From the NCBI GenBank assembly GCA_035623075.1, contig DASPUC010000034.1, positions 3,095 through 67,094 on the forward strand: DNA of 64,000 bases, read 5' to 3'. Shown here piece by piece: positions 44,102 through 64,000 of the stretch. A model generated the notes under the pieces. It did no database searches, was not told where the DNA came from, and was given only the letters and a program-made list of their open reading frames with translations. The position numbers were made by a program, and so were the translations under genes. Within the stretch, counting starts at the first letter, position 1; each line of letters begins with the position of its first letter. Source of the DNA: Nitrospiraceae bacterium. GTDB taxonomy: Bacteria; Nitrospirota; Nitrospiria; Nitrospirales; Nitrospiraceae.

Positions 44102-44134
44102 GTGGTGGTCCCAACGGGATTCGAACCCGTGTTT
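44102..44134 (-). repeat. Left att-type direct repeat (tRNA T-arm + acceptor 3' strand + CCA on the minus strand)
   Basis: The reverse complement reads AAACACGGGTTCGAATCCCGTTGGGACCACCAC. Confidence 0.85.
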
Positions 44135-55229: not shown

Positions 55230-55538
55230 ATGTTGTGGACTGTGAAAGACCTCGCACACAGGTTGAACATCAAACCCTCGACGGTCTACTCGTGGGCGAC
55301 GCACGGACGGATTCCCTGTCTCAAGATTCATGGCGCGCTCCGGTTCCGTCGTGAGGAGATCGAGCGCTGGCTGGAGTCGCTCCGAGTGCAGCAGCCACTC
55401 ACCGCACCAAGCGACCCTCACACAGCGCTCGATGTCCTCATTGCTCGGACGAAACAGCACGCCTATACTCCTCCTCCACGGGGAAGCCAGACCAGATCAA
55501 GCCTCATCAGGAAGGAGGAAACGGATGGGGCTCTATAA
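55230..55538 (+). CDS. Excisionase/AlpA-type helix-turn-helix DNA-binding protein
   Basis: LWTVKDLAHRLNIKPSTVYSWATHGRIPCLKIHGALRFRREEIERWL is a classic excisionase-family HTH. Immediately upstream of int, overlapping it by 14 nt. Confidence 0.75.
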   Translation: MLWTVKDLAHRLNIKPSTVYSWATHGRIPCLKIHGALRFRREEIERWLESLRVQQPLTAPSDPHTALDVLIARTKQHAYTPPPRGSQTRSSLIRKEETDGAL

Positions 55539-56601
55539 GCGACACCGTGTTTGGTGGATGAGTTTCACATACAACGGAGAACAGATTCGCCGTTCGACCG
55601 GCACAACCAATAAGCGATTAGCTGAGGCAATCTGCTCAAAAGTCAGAGTCAAGATCATTGAAGGCCAATACTTCGACCGAGGGGAAGAGCAGGATCGGAC
55701 CGTCGGAGAAATGATGGAGCGGTATTTTCGAGAGCGGGTTGCTGGTGGGAATCGTCATAGTGAGCGGCGAGCCCGCTCCATTCTTACCAACTTGCGCTCG
55801 GTGTTCGGCTCAAAAACACTCGCTGCGGTCACGCCGAAAGAAATTGCCACGTATAAGGCAAACCGTCACCAGCAAGGGGCCAAACCGGCAACGATCGCCA
55901 AAGAACTGGGGCTCATGAAGGCGGCCTACAACGTGGCTATTCGGGAATGGGAATGGTGCCGAGAGAATCCGGTCTGCCGGGTGATGTTTGGACGAATTCG
56001 GAATGCTCGCGTCCGGTATCTCGACGACGGGACGTTTGAACGGGTCGTCAAGGCATGTCCGGCCTGGCTCCAGCCCATCGTCCTGATCGCGCGCTACACC
56101 GGCATGCGGCGGGAGAACGTCGTGATGCTTCAGTGGTCGCAGGTGGATTTACACCGGAAGTTGATTGTCCTTGAGTCCACCAAAAATGGCGATCGGCTCG
56201 GGGTGCCCCTGTGTGATCCTGTGATGACCATCTTGCAAAAGTTAAGGGGCACGAGATTGAACCCCTTCGGACCTGTGTTCACTCGGCTGGATGGAGAACC
56301 CCTGACAGGTGATGCCGTGGGGATCGCCTTCGGGCGAGTCTGTCGTCGGATTGGGATTGAGGATTTCCGCTTTCACGATCTACGACACACGTTTGCGTCG
56401 AGCTTGGTGCAGCAAGGTGTGGATCTGTACCATGTACAGCGACTGTTAGGGCACCGAGATGGTCGGATGACCCAACGTTACGCGCATCTGGCACCTGAAA
56501 ATCTGCGTGACGCGATCCAGGTGTTCAATCGCGGTAATCACAAAATTAGCACACAGGCAGCGGACCGCTCTGAGAGCATGGCACTAAGTCCTTGGAAATA
56601 A
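55525..56601 (+). CDS. int: Tyrosine recombinase (phage-type integrase)
   Basis: GGAGGAA RBS. The C-terminal catalytic region FHDLRHTFASSLVQQGVDLYHVQRLLGHRDGRMTQRYAHL has the R..HxxR..H..Y pattern. The ORF opens at 55330, but the ATG at 55525 has the RBS. Confidence 0.88.
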   Translation: MGLYKRHRVWWMSFTYNGEQIRRSTGTTNKRLAEAICSKVRVKIIEGQYFDRGEEQDRTVGEMMERYFRERVAGGNRHSERRARSILTNLRSVFGSKTLAAVTPKEIATYKANRHQQGAKPATIAKELGLMKAAYNVAIREWEWCRENPVCRVMFGRIRNARVRYLDDGTFERVVKACPAWLQPIVLIARYTGMRRENVVMLQWSQVDLHRKLIVLESTKNGDRLGVPLCDPVMTILQKLRGTRLNPFGPVFTRLDGEPLTGDAVGIAFGRVCRRIGIEDFRFHDLRHTFASSLVQQGVDLYHVQRLLGHRDGRMTQRYAHLAPENLRDAIQVFNRGNHKISTQAADRSESMALSPWK

Positions 56602-56634
56602 GTGGTGGTCCCAACGGGATTCGAACCCGTGTTT
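56602..56634 (-). repeat. Right att-type direct repeat (identical 33 bp)
   Basis: Identical to 44102-44134. The flanking sequence on the right is not tRNA-like. Confidence 0.85.
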
Positions 56635-56783: not shown

Positions 56784-57695
56784 TCAATGGAAAGTTCGCT
56801 TTGCTAGCAACCCCATGAGTCTGGTGTGGAGGGCAACCAGATCATGTATAACTGTGACCTTGCTATTGAGCAAGAGATGCTCGATAGCAAGTGCGCCTTG
56901 TCCGCCAATCGCAACAGCCCAGCGCATCGATAGAGATTCGAGTTCTTGGAGAAGTTGTCGTACCACTGCGTCCGACTTCACCTCAGTCAGAGACAGAAGA
57001 ACCAGATCAGGTTCGACACGCTCACAGAATGTCTGAAGATCGGAAATGGGAAGGTTCGGTCCGAGATAATAGACATGGCAACCCCGCGTGGCGGCGATAT
57101 ATGCCACAGCCTGTGCACCAATCTCATGGGGCTCACCTTCCGGACATGCAACCAGAACACGCGGCCCGAATTCGTTTACTGGAAGTTGGTTCGTGACTGA
57201 AAATAACTTCTGCTGAACGAGTTTTGTCACATAGTGTTCCACCGCAATACTCACTCGTCCTTCGTGCCATAGCTCTCCAACACGGCGTTGCAGCGGAAGC
57301 AGGATTCTCTGCAGCGCCTCTTCAAACGGGATGACCGCTACTGCCCCATTGAGCTTCCTTTCGAAGCGGGTTTTATCGAGCGGATCGAGGAGCTTAACCA
57401 GTTCGTCGAGGAGACTCGCGTGCGGCTGCAGTTCTTGCGTGGTGGGAATCCCGCTGGTCCGCATTCGTTGGAGTAACGAATCGCGCCCCTCTAATGCGAG
57501 CGCGCCGATCGTCTGGCCGCGATCCAGTTCCTCTTTCAGGAATCGAAGGAGCGTCACATCTTGGTCCGTGTATTCTCTATAGCGGTTTGCGCTGCGCAAA
57601 GGTTTGACTAGTTCATACCGCCTCTCCCAGACCCTTATCACATCCTTCGAGAGACCTGTTAGCTTCGCAACTATATGAATTCTATAAGTATTCAT
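56784..57695 (-). CDS. carH: MerR-family regulator with B12-binding domain, CarH/LitR-type light sensor
   Basis: MerR HTH (IVAKLTGLSKDVIRVWERRYELVKP). W-x9-EH motif (WHEGRVSIAVEH). Cobalamin His-on motif E-x-H-x-x-G (GEPHEIGA), followed by a Rossmann-like B12 domain. Confidence 0.8.
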   Translation of the reverse strand: MNTYRIHIVAKLTGLSKDVIRVWERRYELVKPLRSANRYREYTDQDVTLLRFLKEELDRGQTIGALALEGRDSLLQRMRTSGIPTTQELQPHASLLDELVKLLDPLDKTRFERKLNGAVAVIPFEEALQRILLPLQRRVGELWHEGRVSIAVEHYVTKLVQQKLFSVTNQLPVNEFGPRVLVACPEGEPHEIGAQAVAYIAATRGCHVYYLGPNLPISDLQTFCERVEPDLVLLSLTEVKSDAVVRQLLQELESLSMRWAVAIGGQGALAIEHLLLNSKVTVIHDLVALHTRLMGLLAKRTFH

Positions 57696-57707: not shown

Positions 57708-57736
57708 ATAATATTCTTGCGTCCAGTGTTTGTCAA
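57708..57736 (-). promoter_or_regulatory. Sigma70-like promoter for the carH-like gene (near-leaderless)
   Basis: The minus strand reads TTGACA-17 nt-TATTAT. The -10 box ends 12 nt before the ATG at 57695. Confidence 0.5.
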
Positions 57737-57755
57737 ATATTTTAAATTACAACAC

Positions 57756-57784
57756 TTGACACATTGGACAACATGGGTTATACA
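57756..57784 (+). promoter_or_regulatory. Sigma70-like promoter for the plus-strand operon
   Basis: TTGACA (57756-57761), 17 nt spacer, TATACA (57779-57784). Confidence 0.5.
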
Positions 57785-57814
57785 TTAGACATACATTGAA
57801 CATACATTAAACAT
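57782..57814 (+). promoter_or_regulatory. Three tandem 11-bp direct repeats (candidate CarH operator)
   Basis: ACATTAGACAT / ACATTGAACAT / ACATTAAACAT are exactly contiguous. A fourth related copy, ACATTGGACAA, lies at 57761-57771 next to the -35 box. Confidence 0.6.
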
Positions 57815-57833: not shown

Positions 57834-58130
57834 ATGGCAACAGCGGCGGAGAAAAGAGAATCGGCGGCGGAACTCACGATGCAGGGCTTCTCCAGCAAAG
57901 GCATCCAAGGCGGACGGTGCCATCAGTGCGGAGGACTCATGGTCGGCGAGTTCTGCATGGACTTACTAAACGGCAGTGGGGAACTCGAGTTCCTCGCCTC
58001 ACGATGCGTCCAGTGCGGGGAGGTCGTCGATCCAGTGATTCTGATGAACCGGAGGCTGCAGCGGAGCGCAGCTGCGGCACAGCCAGGCGAGGTGCTTTCG
58101 CAGTCAGTCGGATCTCAGGTGGCAGCGTAG
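57834..58130 (+). CDS. Small zinc-ribbon protein
   Basis: CHQC..(29)..CVQC. GGAGG RBS before the ATG at 57834; the ORF opens at a GTG at 57828. Confidence 0.5.
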   Translation: MATAAEKRESAAELTMQGFSSKGIQGGRCHQCGGLMVGEFCMDLLNGSGELEFLASRCVQCGEVVDPVILMNRRLQRSAAAAQPGEVLSQSVGSQVAA

Positions 58131-58188: not shown

Positions 58189-59154
58189 ATGCGGAGTCAA
58201 ATGGTTCTTCAGGCAGGATTAGGCGTTTTGTTGGCAGTTGGTTCTGCTTCTCTGGCCACGGCGGACAAGCCGAATACCGACAAGGATATGGTCAAGATCC
58301 CTCGATCCGAATTTACGATGGGGAGTCATGAACATGCGGATGAGGCCCCGCACCAAGTGGTGTTGGACAGCTACCTGATCGATAAGTACGAGGTCTCAAA
58401 TGCGCGATTCAAAGAATTCATGAAGGCCACCGGGCATCCGGCTCCTGCGTATTGGGATGATCCGCGACTCAGCAAACCCAATCAGCCAGTCGTCGGTGTG
58501 AGTTGGAACGATGCCAATGCCTTTTGCATCTGGGAAGGCAAGCGACTGCCGACCGAGGCGGAATGGGAGCGGGCGGCGAAGGGTCCGGAGGGCGACAATC
58601 ACTACCCGTGGGGACATAAGCTCGATCCGCAGAAAGCCAATTATGGACAGAACGTCGGTCGGACCATGCCGGTGGACTCCTACCCTGAAGGTGTCAGCGG
58701 ATTTGGGGTGTACAACATGGCAGGAAACGTCTTCGAATGGGTCGCTGACTGGTATGACCCAAAGTACTATAAGGAGAGCCTCGCCCTGAATCCGCAAGGG
58801 CCGGATAAAGGATACAACTTCGCGAATCAGGGGCCTGTGAAGGTACTGCGCGGGGGCTCCTGGCTGGCGCCGGAGACCTCGTTGCACACAAGCCACCGGT
58901 TCTGGAACCAGCCCGACAACAACTCCTATGGAGTAGGCCTCGGGTTCCGTTGCGCGAAGTCGGCTCCCGCCATCTCTGACGAATCGATCCAGGCGGGACG
59001 TGACGCTTTCATTGCCGCCCTTGTTGCAATGGGAGCGGAAAAACACGCGGACGCAATGGCCTCAATTGAAAAGGCTCTGGCTGCCGATCCGGGGAACAAG
59101 GAATATCTGGCCACCCGTGATCTCATCAAGAAGAACATGAAGAAGAAACACTAA
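58189..59154 (+). CDS. Secreted FGE-sulfatase-fold (SUMF1/PvdO/NirV-like) protein lacking the FGE catalytic Cys pair
   Basis: Signal peptide, RLPTEAEWERAAKG, GNVFEWVADWY, LRGGSW and GFRCAKS. There are no cysteines after RGGSW, where true FGEs have the C-x4-C motif. Confidence 0.8.
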   Translation: MRSQMVLQAGLGVLLAVGSASLATADKPNTDKDMVKIPRSEFTMGSHEHADEAPHQVVLDSYLIDKYEVSNARFKEFMKATGHPAPAYWDDPRLSKPNQPVVGVSWNDANAFCIWEGKRLPTEAEWERAAKGPEGDNHYPWGHKLDPQKANYGQNVGRTMPVDSYPEGVSGFGVYNMAGNVFEWVADWYDPKYYKESLALNPQGPDKGYNFANQGPVKVLRGGSWLAPETSLHTSHRFWNQPDNNSYGVGLGFRCAKSAPAISDESIQAGRDAFIAALVAMGAEKHADAMASIEKALAADPGNKEYLATRDLIKKNMKKKH

Positions 59155-59299
59155 ACGTCGACCCGGCTCAAGGGGCGGTAAGACCGCCCCTTCCGAGCCG
59201 AATGAGCGACTGGAGTTTCAGCCAACATGATTCGCGGTCTGAAGAAAAGAATCCCGGGGTTTCAAGATAAACCATCGGGATCGTGACGGAGGCGGACGC

Positions 59300-59668
59300 A
59301 TGACACAGTACACGACACTGGTTCTCGGAATTTCTTTCAGTGCGTTCCTGCGAGTGGCCCCTCTCATGGCCGGGCCCATCGATCCAGTCCAGCATCCACA
59401 CCCGGAGCAAGCGACATCGGTCCACGAAGCCGAGCATGCTGTGGACCACGCATGGGAGGTCTATCACCGGGCGGCATTAGGGGGAACCGTGGCGTCCCCT
59501 GCTCTGCAGGCCGAGATTGAGGAGCATCTGCACGAGGCCAGAACCCTCGTGACTCGGGCACAGGAGGCGGCCGAACGCGGAGACAAACGTGAGGTGGATC
59601 ATCTGGTCGGGCAAGTGAAGATTCATTCGACAAAAGCCATCGAAGGCAGCAAGGAGCCGAAGAAATGA
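59300..59668 (+). CDS. Small secreted His-rich helical protein (possible metal-binding)
   Basis: Hydrophobic N-terminus, then PVQHPHPEQATSVHEAEHAVDHAWEVYHR..EEHLHEA. Overlaps the next gene by 4 nt. Confidence 0.5.
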   Translation: MTQYTTLVLGISFSAFLRVAPLMAGPIDPVQHPHPEQATSVHEAEHAVDHAWEVYHRAALGGTVASPALQAEIEEHLHEARTLVTRAQEAAERGDKREVDHLVGQVKIHSTKAIEGSKEPKK

Positions 59669-60501
59669 AATCTGCCTCTGATAACGGACCGCTGTGCCGA
59701 ACACTTTGTGTGGTGATCGTGATTTCAACTTGTACCCTGAGTCCGGCGCTGGCAGCGTCAGCGGATCGGAAAGAGATTGATCCGGTCCCCATGGTGATGA
59801 TTCCAGCCGGAGAGTTCTTGATGGGCAGTCCGGAAGGACAAGGGCGCGCCGATGAGCGGCCTCAACGGTCAGTGTACCTCGACGCGTTCGCAATTGATCA
59901 AGTCGAAGTGACCAATAAACGGTATATGGCCTTCGTCACAGCAACGGGCCATCGCAGTCCGCCGAACCCATACGGAACGGGCCCGTTGGTGTCCATCAAA
60001 GGCATTGAGCAACTCCCTGTCGTGCAAACAACTTGGTACGACGCCAAGGCCTACTGTAGTTGGGCCAAGAAGCGACTGCCGACGGAGGCGGAATGGGAAA
60101 AGGCAGCTCGTGGCACGGACGGCCGGCTGTACCCCTGGGGCAACGAACCGGCCACATTGAAGCGTGCCAACTTCGACCGCGAATGGGAGGAAGACAAGAC
60201 CTTATATCCGGTTGGATCGCTGCTGGGAGGCGACTCGCCGTACGGGGTGAAAGACATGGCCGGCAATGCCAGAGAGTGGGTTGCCGACTGGTACGACGGG
60301 GACTACTACAAACTGGCACCGGTTCGGAATCCACAAGGACCCGACAAAAAGGGGGTCGTCCGGTCGATCCGCGGTGGATCTTGGCACAGCCCAGTGGGTG
60401 ATATCACCACCACCGCGAGAGGTCGTGGTGGGTTTGCGTTGCAGACCCACGGAACCGGTTTCCGCTGCGCGAGTAGTCTGGATGGTGATCAACAGAAATA
60501 G
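59665..60501 (+). CDS. Second secreted FGE-sulfatase-fold paralog, also lacking the catalytic Cys pair
   Basis: Signal or lipoprotein-like N-terminus, RLPTEAEWEKAARG, GNAREWVADWY, IRGGSWHSP and GFRCASS. Confidence 0.8.
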   Translation: MKSASDNGPLCRTLCVVIVISTCTLSPALAASADRKEIDPVPMVMIPAGEFLMGSPEGQGRADERPQRSVYLDAFAIDQVEVTNKRYMAFVTATGHRSPPNPYGTGPLVSIKGIEQLPVVQTTWYDAKAYCSWAKKRLPTEAEWEKAARGTDGRLYPWGNEPATLKRANFDREWEEDKTLYPVGSLLGGDSPYGVKDMAGNAREWVADWYDGDYYKLAPVRNPQGPDKKGVVRSIRGGSWHSPVGDITTTARGRGGFALQTHGTGFRCASSLDGDQQK

Positions 60502-60699
60502 TCGCGGAGGATTCGTCAATGTTTGAGGGTGAGTTGTGGAGCTTCGGAGGCCGGTACACATGTTACCTGTGGTGGCGCCGCAACTCCGCACGGCGTTACC
60601 CACTAAGGTCGACGGGTCCTGATCCCCTGTGAAGGGCCCGTCCCCCTTGGTGCCATTTGGATTGACGCCTTATTGAATATCTTATGGGAGGAGAACGCT

Positions 60700-61617
60700 G
60701 TGAACGTTGTGGTAGCAGGCGGAACGGGATTTATTGGGAGGAGTCTCTGTAAGAGGCTTCTTCTTTGCGGTCACCGTGTGACGATTCTGACGAGGAGACG
60801 AACGGAAGTCGAACGCCTGTTTGGGACAATGGTGAAACCAATCGAATGGGATGGCACCTCATCGGGCCGCTGGGAAGAGGCGTTACAAGGAACACAGGCG
60901 GTGGTGAACCTCGCCGGGGCCTCGATTGCCGAAGCACGCTGGACGGAGAGCCGAAAGCAGTTGCTCACTCAAAGTAGACTTAATGCGACACGTGCACTTG
61001 TCCAAGCCTGCTTCCGTCTGCCGGTGACGCCACAGGTGCTCATAAACGCGTCAGGTATTGGGTTCTATGGCCACCAGGATGATCGGGTGGTCGATGAAGC
61101 TAGCCCAGCTGGTAAGGGATTTCTGGCTGATTTATGTGTGCAGTGGGAATCAGCCGCGCAGAAAGCCGCTGCAAAGGGTATTCGAACCGTCTGTCTAAGG
61201 ACCGGTCTGGTGCTTGGAGACGACGGAGGCGCACTCCCTCGCATGGTCCTGCCGTTCCGGCTTTTCATAGGAGGACCTGCGGGGCCCGGCACTCAGTGGG
61301 TCTCGTGGATTCATCGGGATGATTATGCGGGACTCATCGAGTGGACGCTTTCGACACCGAGTGTATCCGGACCCGTTAACGCTGTGGCACCAGAACCAGT
61401 CACCATGACGGAATTCTGCAGAACACTCGGTCAGGTGTTGCACAGGCCCTCGTGGATTCCCGTGCCTGAAGTTGTGTTCGGGTTGGCCTTGGGAGAACTT
61501 GGATCTCTCATGACAACGGGTCAACGAGTGAAGCCGGCGAAGGCGGAACAAGGGGGATACCGTTTTCAGTATTCGTACCTCACCAAGGCCTTACAGAATA
61601 TCTTCACCCTGCAGTGA
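60700..61617 (+). CDS. YfcH-like (TIGR01777, DUF1731) SDR-family epimerase/oxidoreductase
   Basis: NVVVAGGTGFIGRSL Rossmann motif, and a C-terminal ..GQRVKPAKAEQGGYRFQY.. typical of YfcH. GGGAGGAG RBS 6 nt before the GTG at 60700; the ORF opens at a TTG at 60673. Confidence 0.75.
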   Translation: MNVVVAGGTGFIGRSLCKRLLLCGHRVTILTRRRTEVERLFGTMVKPIEWDGTSSGRWEEALQGTQAVVNLAGASIAEARWTESRKQLLTQSRLNATRALVQACFRLPVTPQVLINASGIGFYGHQDDRVVDEASPAGKGFLADLCVQWESAAQKAAAKGIRTVCLRTGLVLGDDGGALPRMVLPFRLFIGGPAGPGTQWVSWIHRDDYAGLIEWTLSTPSVSGPVNAVAPEPVTMTEFCRTLGQVLHRPSWIPVPEVVFGLALGELGSLMTTGQRVKPAKAEQGGYRFQYSYLTKALQNIFTLQ

Positions 61618-61634
61618 CACGAGGTGCCTGTATA

Positions 61635-63080
61635 ATGCGCAGCATCGTTTGGTTCAGGCGCGATCTCAGACTCCACGATAACCCGGCCCTCATGGCAGCC
61701 TGCAAGGAGTGCGACGAGATCATTCCCCTCTTCGTGTTTGACGAACCACTCCTGCAATCGCATGAGTTCGGTCCGGCCTGCGTGAACTTCATGCTCGGAT
61801 GCTTAGAGGACCTCGCGTCCTCGCTCGCCAAGCTGGGGCTTCCTTTCCAATGGCGGCGCGGCACGCAGGGCGAGGAAGTCGTGAATGCGGCGAAGAGTTG
61901 GAAGGCCGACATCGTATACTGGAACCGCGACTATGAGCCGGGCGCGATCAAACGAGATCTCATCGTGGCTCAACGACTGGCTAAGCTCGGGGTGATTGTG
62001 CGCACGTTCAAGGACCATGTCGTGTTTGAAGCCGAAGAGGTCCGGAGCGCCACTGGCGAACCGCTGCAGCGCTATAGTGCCTATCGGGCGCGCTGGTGGG
62101 CCAAGTGGCACGCGGTGAAGCCGCTGCCGTTGCCGGTCCCCTCGACCGTGAAGCGCCCGAAGGCGGACCGGTTGCTGTTACCTCTCCCGCTGCCTTCGGC
62201 TTCGGATCTGGGATATGAACTCCTTACGCCATGGATCGGACCGGGGGAATGTCGGGCCCGCAAGCGCCTTGAAGAATTTCTCGCTGGTCCCATTCATCGC
62301 TATGTCGACGGCCGAAACCTTCCGGGAATCGACGGAAGCTCCAAGCTCTCTCCCCATTTCCGTTTCGGCACGCTCTCGCCGCGGGACGCGGTTCATGCGG
62401 CGCTCGGTACATTAGCGAAAGGCGGGCGCGTCTCGCGCCCTGATATCCTGACCTGGATCGATGAATTGATCTGGCGAGAGTTCTTCCAACAGGTATTGAC
62501 TGCCTTCCCGCGGGTCGTCGAAGGGCCGTTCCGGTATGCGGCCGTATCTCCTCCACGGGAACGGGACCCTGAGCGGGATCCCTTGTTTCAGGCCTGGTGC
62601 GAGGGACGGACGGGCTATCCGATCGTTGATGCCGGCATGCGTCAACTGAATCAGACCGGCTGGATGCACAACCGAGTGCGCATGATCGTGGCGTCATTCC
62701 TAATCAAGGATCTTCGGATCGACTGGCAGCGCGGAGAGCGGTATTTCATGAATCACCTTCTCGACGCCGACGTGGCTGCTAACAACGGCAACTGGCAGTG
62801 GTGCGCTTCGACCGGGACGGATGCGATGCGCGCGTACCGGATCTTTAACCCCGCGTTGCAGAGCAAAAAGTTCGATCCCGATGGGGCGTATATTCGCCGC
62901 TATGTGCCGGAACTGGCGCGGGTGGCCACCCAGCGGATTCATGAGCCCCATGTGATGACTCTCGATGAACAGAGCCGGTCCCATTGTCGCATTGGGGTGG
63001 ACTACCCCTCGCCGGTTGTGGATCATCGACAGGCTCGCCGGGAATACCTCGGCCTCAGCAAACAGCAGGTAAGGCGGTGA
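61635..63080 (+). CDS. phrB: Deoxyribodipyrimidine photolyase (CPD class I type)
   Basis: IVWFRRDLRLHDNPAL, SKLSPHFRFGTLSPR, WREFF, TGYPIVDAGMRQL..GWMHNR.R, and NNGNWQW. Confidence 0.9.
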   Translation: MRSIVWFRRDLRLHDNPALMAACKECDEIIPLFVFDEPLLQSHEFGPACVNFMLGCLEDLASSLAKLGLPFQWRRGTQGEEVVNAAKSWKADIVYWNRDYEPGAIKRDLIVAQRLAKLGVIVRTFKDHVVFEAEEVRSATGEPLQRYSAYRARWWAKWHAVKPLPLPVPSTVKRPKADRLLLPLPLPSASDLGYELLTPWIGPGECRARKRLEEFLAGPIHRYVDGRNLPGIDGSSKLSPHFRFGTLSPRDAVHAALGTLAKGGRVSRPDILTWIDELIWREFFQQVLTAFPRVVEGPFRYAAVSPPRERDPERDPLFQAWCEGRTGYPIVDAGMRQLNQTGWMHNRVRMIVASFLIKDLRIDWQRGERYFMNHLLDADVAANNGNWQWCASTGTDAMRAYRIFNPALQSKKFDPDGAYIRRYVPELARVATQRIHEPHVMTLDEQSRSHCRIGVDYPSPVVDHRQARREYLGLSKQQVRR

Positions 63081-64000
63081 CACCCGCCCCGCTTCGCCTC
63101 GGAATCAGCCGCTGTCTGCTCGGGGACGAAGTGCGGTTCGACGGCGGCCATAAGCGCGACCATTTTCTGACGGACGTCTTCGGGCGCTATGTGGAGTGGG
63201 TGCCCATCTGTCCAGAAGTCGAGGCGGGACTGGGTACGCCCCGGGAAGCCATGCGGCTGGTCGGCGACCCTAATCGCCCGCGGCTGATCACGATCAAGAG
63301 CGGGAGGGATCATACGGACGCGCTGTGCAAGATGACCGCCGATCGTCTCGACTCACTCGAGGCACTGGATCTCTCAGGCTATATCTTCAAGAAGGACTCG
63401 CCGAGCTGCGGTGTCGAGCGGGTCCGGATCTATAACCAGCATGGCATGCCCAGCCGGAATGGCATCGGTATTTTCGCACGTGCATTTATCAAACGGTTTC
63501 CCCTGATCCCAGTCGAGGAGGAAGGGCGGCTCTGTGATCCGTCTCTGCGCGAGAACTTCATCGAGCGCATCTTCTGTTACCATCGGTACCTGGACCTCGT
63601 GGGCCGGGGAGTGACCAGACAGGCAGTGGTGCGATTCCACACAATTCATAAATTCTTGCTGCTGGCACACAGCCAGCCCCACTACCAAGTCCTTGGGCGG
63701 CTGGTAGGTCGGGCCGACCAGTATCGTACCAAGGAGTTGGCCGCAAAATACGGGGAGCTCTTCATGAAAGCGTTGGCCGTGAGAGCAACCGCCCGCAAGC
63801 ACGTGAATGTGCTGCATCATATTCTCGGCTACTTCAAGAACCGATTAGAGGCCGAGGACAAATCGGAACTCTTAGGCGTGATCGAAGACTATCATCGAGG
63901 GCTCACGCCCCTGATCGTCCCGCTGACGCTGATCAAGCACTACGTCCGCAGATTCGACGTGGGCTACATTCAGGACCAGGTCTATCTCAACCCGCATCCA
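63077..64000 (+). CDS. YbgA-like DUF523 + DUF1722 protein (3' end outside the window)
   Basis: Not in the ORF track; translated by hand. The GTG at 63077 overlaps the phr stop (GTGA). Translation: VTPAPLRLGISRCLLGDEVRFDGGHKRDHF.. (DUF523) ..HRGLTPLIVPLTLIKHYVRRFDVGYIQDQVYLNPHP (DUF1722). The frame stays open to position 64000. Confidence 0.75.
   Translation, partial: MTPAPLRLGISRCLLGDEVRFDGGHKRDHFLTDVFGRYVEWVPICPEVEAGLGTPREAMRLVGDPNRPRLITIKSGRDHTDALCKMTADRLDSLEALDLSGYIFKKDSPSCGVERVRIYNQHGMPSRNGIGIFARAFIKRFPLIPVEEEGRLCDPSLRENFIERIFCYHRYLDLVGRGVTRQAVVRFHTIHKFLLLAHSQPHYQVLGRLVGRADQYRTKELAAKYGELFMKALAVRATARKHVNVLHHILGYFKNRLEAEDKSELLGVIEDYHRGLTPLIVPLTLIKHYVRRFDVGYIQDQVYLNPHP

Follow-up and report, generated by a model that had tools for sequence, protein, structure and literature searches.

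Nitrifiers are inhibited by light, and this inhibition explains in part where in lakes, oceans and treatment plants Nitrospira is found; we know of no description of how nitrifiers perceive light. How such a microbe might recognize light is the question raised by a gene at positions 56784-57695, minus strand, of a 64,000-nucleotide stretch of Nitrospiraceae DNA, which in its full length is called the window below. The reading put forward here with high confidence is that this gene, carH/litR, encodes a class I LitR/CarH-type photoreceptor-repressor that follows the standard CarH cycle, and most likely this CarH-type repressor keeps an adjoining ultraviolet (UV)-repair operon off in the dark. 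An earlier note on this DNA had considered it notable that a non-phototroph senses light, but this was overstated, as to our knowledge all characterised CarH/LitR proteins come from non-phototrophs. In fact, mining has already yielded about 1,500 candidate photoreceptors of this kind (PMC11796333); the protein family itself is ordinary and the regulator type, well known as it is, would be no surprise to a CarH specialist. Full-text literature searches combining CarH/LitR with Nitrospira or Nitrospirae retrieved unrelated mentions only and no paper linking the two. Equally, a study on lake Nitrospira, which reports a class I cyclobutane pyrimidine dimer (CPD) photolyase in most reference Nitrospira, mentions no regulator.

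The regulator gene is a single open reading frame (ORF) of 303 codons beginning with ATG, and the sequence reads an in-frame TAA two codons 5' of this ATG, so that no longer carH ORF exists and the ATG is the only possible start. The joining of a MerR helix-turn-helix to a B12-binding module, as previously claimed from the letters alone, is borne out by three Pfam domain matches on the minus strand, all of which exceed their gathering scores: a MerR-type winged-helix DNA-binding domain (residues 4-65, 57501-57686; MerR_1, PF13411, E 1.5e-13), a four-helix-bundle subdomain (residues 96-164, 57204-57410; B12-binding_2, PF02607, E 1.2e-10) and a Rossmann B12-binding subdomain (residues 179-282, 56850-57161; B12-binding, PF02310, E 3e-11).

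The Wx9EH motif of such proteins contacts and caps the upper axial 5'-deoxyadenosyl group, and H132 of the Thermus thermophilus protein TtCarH supplies the bis-histidine ligand of the light state. In the Nitrospiraceae protein this motif reads WHEGRVSIAVEH (residues 143-154, 57269-57234, minus strand), that is W143-H144-x8-E153-H154, with W143, H144, E153 and H154 aligning with W131, H132, E141 and H142 in WHRGEIGVAEEH of TtCarH, and the four-helix bundle also carries G140-x-x-W143 (G140-E-L-W143). In the recognition helix of the MerR domain, R21-V-W-E-R-R-Y27 reproduces the RxWERRY motif defined for CarH/LitR proteins (PMC9304148). The Rossmann motif of CarH, D/ExHx2G/P-x41-SxT/V-x22-27-GG, in which the histidine is the lower axial ligand (PMC9304148), is found again in GEPHEIGA (residues 187-194; E188-P-H190-E-I-G193 at 57117-57134) with a spacing, counted on the sequence, of E188-x-H190-x2-G193, 41 residues, S235-L-T237, 26 residues and G264-G265, and H190 aligns with H177 in GERHEIGA of TtCarH. 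A further Rossmann motif, G212-x3-P216 (G212-P-N-L-P216), stands opposite G-P-D-T-P in TtCarH. Thereby the published signature of a light-responsive, adenosyl-specific B12 domain, GxxW, EH, GxxH and GxxxP (PMC11796333), is complete as G140xxW143, E153H154, G187xxH190 and G212xxxP216, the last of these assigned by the present analysis, as the publication gives no position for GxxxP. Among 22 aligned Nitrospiraceae homologues with 51-84% identity to the query, R21, W23, E24, R25 and R26 are invariant while Y27 varies (F or H in several), and equally invariant are W143, H144, E153, H154, E188, H190, S235, G264, G265, G212 and P216. Both diagnostic motifs that the earlier note had named without stating the strand, Wx9EH and ExHxxG, are thus present on the minus strand, and the alignment to Thermus CarH that it had proposed as a check places Wx9EH and the lower-ligand histidine in register with W131/E141/H142 and H177.

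The predicted structure points in the same direction. Among all Protein Data Bank (PDB) sequences the best matches are T. thermophilus LitR/CarH (3WHP, E 6e-31; 5C8D, E 7.5e-31), with an unbroken HMMER alignment over residues 3-272 that spans all three modules. An AlphaFold2 model, built on the homologue alignment, reached a mean predicted local distance difference test of 87 and a predicted template modelling (TM) score of 0.82, and a Foldseek search of the PDB with this model as query returned TtCarH entries throughout the top 50. The B12 domain of the model superposes on TtCarH with a target-normalised TM score of 0.77-0.83 and a root mean square deviation of 2.7-4 Å (about 3 Å); the flexible tether of the DNA-binding head lowers the full-length Foldseek scores.

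All sequence-level features that set CarH/class I LitR apart from ordinary B12 proteins, from CarA and from LitR of classes II-V, as taken from PMC9304148, PMC11796333 and PMC9758184, were found in this protein. CarA is without the tryptophan of Wx9EH and without its flanking residues (PMC9304148), and an identity with CarA was ruled out by the presence of this tryptophan, invariant in the 22 homologues. Class II LitR of the Pseudomonas type consists of the four-helix bundle only and has no Rossmann B12 module (PMC9758184), which, being present here, ruled out this class as well. Judged by its sequence and predicted structure, the protein belongs to the class I LitR/CarH family in the sense of the literature. 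It is also the single regulator of the CarH kind in the genome, the other B12-binding matches being long enzymes.

If the protein is a CarH-type repressor, where would it bind? CarH operators consist of tandem 11-bp direct repeats, nnnnTnnACAn, which overlap promoter elements and tolerate degenerate units, with three repeats used by Thermus CarH and four by Bacillus CarH (PMC9304148). The spacer between carH and the divergently transcribed neighbouring gene measures 138 bp, and its divergent-promoter architecture is conserved in 30 relatives. On the plus strand, the predicted promoter of the divergent operon at 57756-57784 comprises TTGACA (57756-57761), 17 nt and TATACA (57779-57784). Starting within this -10 element, a candidate CarH operator of three exact tandem 11-bp repeats, ACATTAGACAT, ACATTGAACAT and ACATTAAACAT, each fitting nnnnTnnACAn, occupies 57782-57814 on the plus strand and extends across the expected start site into the early transcribed region. 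The pattern TnnACA-N5-TnnACA-N5-TnnACA has one match in the window, with 0.01 expected from shuffled sequence, and that match, at 57782-57814, is the only one in the whole 3.40-Mb genome, which is 99.9% complete. A fourth operator-like unit, ACATTGGACA (57761-57770, plus strand), lies directly after the -35 element, 21 bp upstream of the first repeat, a spacing of 21/22 bp that recurs in relatives. Furthermore, this 54-bp stretch contains four of the 14 genome-wide sites of the tighter 10-mer ACATTRRACA.

In all 20 longer loci, which come from several genera, the motif is likewise concentrated between carH and the divergent operon; typically, the carH strand has one unit and the operon strand has three, with the 21/22-bp spacing. 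No second operator was found before the short-chain dehydrogenase/reductase (SDR) gene or the photolyase gene phr, neither in the window nor in most relatives. As a side observation, two related Nitrospiraceae loci possess extra ACATTRRACA clusters (L032:17904-17977 and L050:13862-13924) adjoining duplicated FGE-fold (formylglycine-generating enzyme, see below) or zinc-ribbon genes, which suggests that the operator may have been duplicated along with its target genes. Carotenogenesis, on the other hand, was considered and rejected as a CarH-controlled output, as the two contigs that carry the two SQS_PSY genes of the genome, C5 and C9, are without the triple repeat and without any ACATTRRACA site; these two genes may encode squalene/hopanoid enzymes.

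On the carH side, the promoter PcarH (57708-57736, minus strand; TTGACA at 57736-57731, 17 nt, TATTAT at 57713-57708) matches the consensus at 11 of 12 positions and is the best score of the promoter consensus scan in a 7.5-kb region. Both promoters thus have the optimal 17-bp spacer, in keeping with repression by occlusion rather than with activation of the MerR type. The -10 element of PcarH ends 12 nt before the ATG, the tail being GAACAATAAGTC, and no Shine-Dalgarno (SD)-like tetramer (GGAG, GAGG or AGGA) is present in this 12-nt tail. With the start taken about 7 nt after the -10 element, the predicted leader measures about 4-6 nt. Orthologous loci of 30 related genomes carry a matching -35/-10 pair; the distance from the -10 element to the aligned ATG is 10-13 nt in 29 of them, with a mode of 12, and an SD-like tetramer occurs in three and in none of the other 27. 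For the almost leaderless transcript proposed in the earlier note, the promoter geometry is read directly and has been kept in 29/30 relatives, whereas the position of the transcription start follows by inference; from this geometry and its conservation it is sound to infer that a near-leaderless carH mRNA represents a conserved design. The carH-strand -35 element TTGACA is itself a TnnACA unit, and a possible autoregulatory site at 57719-57740 (minus strand) combines this repeat, atatTTGACAa, with the degenerate acacTGGACGc over the -35 element and the spacer of PcarH. In 20 of the 30 relatives a second TnnACA unit follows 11 bp after TTGACA, in the position where TGGACG is found here, which suggests autoregulation of carH in those genomes.

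Which genes would such a switch control? On the plus strand the putative operon opens with a gene for a 98-residue CxxC...CxxC zinc-ribbon protein (57834-58130), preceded by a GGAGG SD sequence and with no family match in Pfam or NCBIfam. This gene adjoins carH in 20/20 related loci, always as the first after the operator, and could encode a light-induced regulator or a partner of CarH; a second, shorter zinc-ribbon copy just before the SDR gene, which many relatives possess, is absent from the window. Two secreted proteins with the fold of the formylglycine-generating enzyme (FGE)-sulfatase family follow at 58189-59154 (PF03781, E 7e-55) and 59665-60501 (PF03781, E 5e-56), separated by a gene for a small secreted histidine-rich helical protein (59300-59668; weak DUF4398 match). 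The gene for the histidine-rich protein and that for the second FGE-fold protein are syntenic in relatives, many of which have a third FGE-fold paralogue between the first and the second. Both FGE-fold proteins are closest in the PDB to true formylglycine-generating enzymes (6MUJ and 2Q17, E about 1e-38); as the positions of the FGE cysteine pair read GGSWLAPETSLHTSHRF and GGSWHSPVGDITTTARG, the pair is missing, and the two proteins probably differ in function from FGEs.

The distal part begins with a YfcH-family SDR with DUF1731 (60673-61617, plus strand), whose TIGR01777 score of 343 bits exceeds the cut-off of 207. Next come a class I CPD photolyase (phr, 61614-63080, probable ATG at 61635, plus strand; PF00875 and PF03441), which is the only photolyase in the genome (single PF03441 match), and a RudS-type gene with TudS and DUF1722 domains (PF04463 and PF08349), which extends on the plus strand from about 63077 to 64000 and ends 30 nt past the window, its full ORF having been read on the contig C34. 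RudS is a tRNA 4-thiouridine desulfidase, reported to occur in light-responsive operons together with photolyase and LitR (PMC11417400). In the intergenic gaps of the operon no convincing terminator was found, the one strong hairpin lying inside the second FGE-fold ORF. Beside its family assignment, the SDR scores 339 bits on the NCBIfam model 'thylakoid membrane protein ThyD' (cut-off 400), near its TIGR01777 score, an odd resemblance for a gene in a light operon of a non-phototroph.

The association of these genes is not peculiar to the window. The conserved order comprises carH and, divergently, genes for zinc-ribbon, FGE-fold, histidine-rich and FGE-fold proteins, SDR, a variable insert, phr and rudS, often with an extra FGE-fold gene after the first one and a second zinc-ribbon gene before the SDR gene. 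The full order is present in 16 of 20 loci from different genera, in which carH identity ranges from 79% down to 52%, and the other four match as far as the 20-kb locus reaches; phr and rudS are absent within the 20-kb locus in L032, L034, L049 and L050, and rudS in L043. Among 151 sampled genomes of the family, the window's own genome included, 67 carry carH and phr, six carH only, 15 phr only and 63 neither; these genomes are related and not independent, so that no weight is placed on a P value for these counts. The linkage of carH with phr is plain: the two genes are at most 15 kb apart in all 53 genomes that carry both on one contig, with a median distance of 8.4 kb.

Altogether a carH orthologue occurs in 73 of the 151 genomes and 18 of 39 genera, and the cultured N. 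moscoviensis NSP M-1, among the closest named genomes, carries one with 77% identity, located in NZ_CP011801.1:122637-125536. Named homologues are from Nitrospira or Nitrospiraceae and the host is a nitrite-oxidising Nitrospira, in agreement with the nitrifier-type lithotroph that had been suspected, and outside the Nitrospirales the nearest relatives, in Methylobacter, Gemmatimonadota, Acidobacteriota and Myxococcota, show about 30% identity. Some annotation pipelines label the homologues 'MerR family transcriptional regulator, light-induced transcriptional regulator' and others mislabel them 'methanogenic corrinoid protein MtbC1'. In a few Nitrospiraceae (G103:C180, G073:C163, G025:C73) a second, distant CarH-like gene with 34-37% identity is present in addition to the orthologue.

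A photoreceptor of this kind requires adenosylcobalamin (AdoCbl), and the genome suggests from where it might be obtained. CbiC was not found anywhere in the 99.9%-complete genome, which leaves salvage as the only corrinoid route; CbiJ gave no match in the genome either, a result that adds little to that for CbiC, as the CbiJ model is of low sensitivity in control genomes. A cluster for corrinoid uptake and remodelling is located on another contig (C52:4078-16104), where two cobalamin riboswitches stand ahead of genes for a BtuF-type binding protein, its permease and ATPase and for a TonB-dependent receptor, and where genes for a PduO-type adenosyltransferase (204 bits), CobU, CobT, CobS, CbiB, an aminotransferase-like protein and CbiZ continue the cluster. 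Judged from this gene content, the host looks like a corrin auxotroph, and most likely the cell takes up corrinoids, remodels them and is able to form AdoCbl, which CarH needs as its chromophore.

With these components a CarH cycle can be outlined. In the dark the protein would bind AdoCbl, with H190 as the lower axial ligand and W143, E153 and H154 capping the 5'-deoxyadenosyl group. The AdoCbl-bound protein would oligomerise and contact, through its MerR-type heads, the tandem 11-bp TnnACA repeats at 57782-57814 and probably also the weaker repeats over its own -35 element, and the bound oligomer would block RNA polymerase at the divergent promoter. The Co-C bond would be broken by near-UV, blue or green light, upon which H144 could take the upper axial position and the oligomer would fall apart and leave the DNA. 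Subsequently, the operon would be transcribed as one unit encoding zinc-ribbon, FGE-fold, histidine-rich and FGE-fold proteins, YfcH-SDR, CPD photolyase and RudS. The carH mRNA itself probably starts about 4-6 nt before its AUG and would be translated without an SD sequence. As the cell would have to import and remodel corrinoids before their adenosylation by the PduO-type enzyme, dark repression would also depend on the external supply of B12.

Comparison with characterised systems shows which parts of this outline are shared. TtCarH (TtLitR; PDB 5C8A/5C8D/5C8E/5C8F, 3WHP), the structural archetype of class I LitR/CarH, has the same three-module architecture and fold, with RxWERRY, W-H-x8-E-H and E-x-H-x2-G...SxT/V...GG all in register, an operator of three tandem 11-bp nnnnTnnACAn repeats overlapping the promoter, a photolyase in the light-induced gene set of Thermus and likewise a non-phototroph as host. 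Unlike in Thermus, Nitrospira carH is without linked or operator-bearing carotenoid genes, the operon opens with zinc-ribbon and secreted FGE-fold genes, and the host would salvage corrinoids rather than make them. CarH of Myxococcus xanthus/Cystobacter and of Bacillus megaterium displays the same AdoCbl-type motif set. Operators in these bacteria comprise three to five tandem 11-bp repeats, good (DR) and degenerate (dr) ones, including the -35 element TTGACA (PMC9304148), and are matched by the mixture of DR and dr units across the Nitrospiraceae; on the other hand, these proteins, which differ in oligomeric state (dimer, tetramer), regulate carotenogenesis, an output unlike that in Nitrospira, where the operator is moreover divergent with units at 21/22-bp and 11-bp spacings. 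A similar output gene set is that of Pseudomonas class II LitR (PplR/PmlR), where a single light-inducible cluster next to the MerR-type regulator combines a DNA photolyase gene with genes for a short-chain dehydrogenase and for RudS (DUF523-DUF1722). However, the Pseudomonas regulator, a four-helix bundle only, cannot bind B12 and depends on a short light-oxygen-voltage (LOV) protein, whereas the Nitrospira protein has a complete B12 module. Equally, the B12-independent paralogue CarA of M. xanthus shares the MerR head and a B12-binding-like C-terminal domain, but not the Wx9EH tryptophan and its flanking residues, the tryptophan being retained and invariant in the Nitrospira homologues. Compared with characterised CarH members, the Nitrospira carH leader is predicted to be short and without an SD sequence, and the host is a chemolithoautotroph that appears to salvage corrinoids.

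Several observations weigh against the reading as a CarH-type repressor of the divergent operon. Identity to TtCarH is only about 30%, and although the NCBIfam equivalog model NF052513, 'HTH-type transcriptional repressor CarH', is the best-scoring family (140.3 bits, E 7e-41, residues 3-272), the score lies far below the curated cut-off of 400, for which reason equivalog status in the curated NCBIfam CarH set was rejected. In the HMMER alignment Pro189, Asn214 and Val stand where the dimer/tetramer interfaces of TtCarH have Arg176 and Asp201, which form a salt bridge, and Gly160, so that the dark-state assembly of the Nitrospira protein may not be a Thermus-like tetramer; this interface is, though, variable within the CarH family rather than strictly defining, as oligomeric state and interface residues differ across its members, dimeric CarH included (PMC9304148). 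On the DNA side, the plus-strand -10 element TATACA is weak and stays under the threshold of the promoter consensus scan, and the exact triple tandem is found in only five of 30 relatives; in 24 of the 30 the middle unit is degenerate and lies between two good ones spaced 22 bp apart. With one good repeat and TGGACG in PcarH, autoregulation appears doubtful in the present genome. Gaps of 145 bp (59154-59300) and 171 bp (60501-60673) interrupt the proposed operon, and the photolyase, at a distance of 3.8 kb from the candidate operator, may have its own promoter.

Against these points, which explanation other than a light-released repressor could account for the locus? The protein might be a sensor of B12 availability that reports the corrinoid supply in a B12-auxotrophic cell, with light having no physiological role. 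For a cell in which no CbiC was found and which depends on salvage, B12 status matters, and apo-CarH proteins in general do not repress (PMC9304148); such a function is nevertheless quite improbable, as the intact Wx9EH, GxxW and GxxH together are the published light-responsive, adenosyl-specific signature, the conserved outputs are photolyase and RudS and not B12 uptake or B12-dependent enzymes, and B12 transport and salvage are under riboswitches on another contig. Little credence, and somewhat less than to a B12 sensor, is given to a CarA-like or B12-independent paralogue that would need a partner for its light response, either an antirepressor of the CarS type or a LOV protein as in class II LitR, a part which the zinc-ribbon protein could take. 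Partner-dependent LitR/CarA systems do exist (PMC9758184, PMC9304148), the small zinc-ribbon gene without family match always adjoins carH, and the TtCarH oligomer-interface residues are not conserved; yet the Wx9EH tryptophan, lost in CarA, and the Rossmann module, lost in class II LitR, are both present and invariant, and the genome holds a single such regulator.

Least probable of all is an activator of the MerR type, or a regulator that acts elsewhere than on the divergent operon, for which the 11-bp repeats would be coincidental or serve another factor. Most MerR-family proteins are activators and the weak plus-strand TATACA could call for activation. However, the two 17-bp spacers, on which account MerR-type activation was rejected, depart from the 19-20 bp typical of MerR-activated promoters, and the repeats, found nowhere else in the genome, agree with the CarH consensus known from footprinting, overlap the -10 element and the start site, which is the position of a repressor, and travel as a cluster with carH across genera. 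All three explanations are rated this low because their defining features were looked for and not found; in addition, there are the 17-bp spacers of both promoters. A CarH/LitR-type AdoCbl regulator, as proposed from the outset in the earlier note, is by contrast the identification on which domains, motifs, fold, a CarH-type operator and the adjoining photolyase/RudS operon agree.

The immediate surroundings of carH include a further structure. Two identical 33-bp repeats at 44102-44134 and 56602-56634, which resemble the 3' end of a tRNA or tmRNA (T-arm, acceptor strand and CCA, minus strand), flank a 12.5-kb segment, at the end of which lie xis and a tyrosine integrase gene (55230-56601). 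ARAGORN, also with relaxed settings, identified no intact tRNA or tmRNA at either repeat. As carH begins 150 bp outside the right-hand repeat, it is not cargo of this island.

For the biology of the Nitrospiraceae, a regulator whose AdoCbl-photoreceptor signature is complete, together with a unique operator and a defined output operon, provides a testable switch through which to study how nitrite oxidisers respond to light and how this response depends on the B12 of the community, with the prediction that dark repression fails when external corrinoids are scarce. The conserved secreted FGE-fold proteins can be considered candidate light-stress factors. More tentatively, and with distinctly less than even probability, the Nitrospiraceae CarH switch might have been rewired from carotenogenesis to a conserved envelope/periplasmic light-stress module, composed of the zinc-ribbon protein, two or three secreted FGE-fold proteins without the catalytic cysteine pair and the histidine-rich protein, which would be co-expressed with photolyase and the tRNA 4-thiouridine desulfidase RudS and whose dark/light control would depend on the B12 of neighbours. 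If true, photoinhibition and photoprotection of nitrite oxidisers would, through such a rewired switch, be tied to the B12 that their community supplies.

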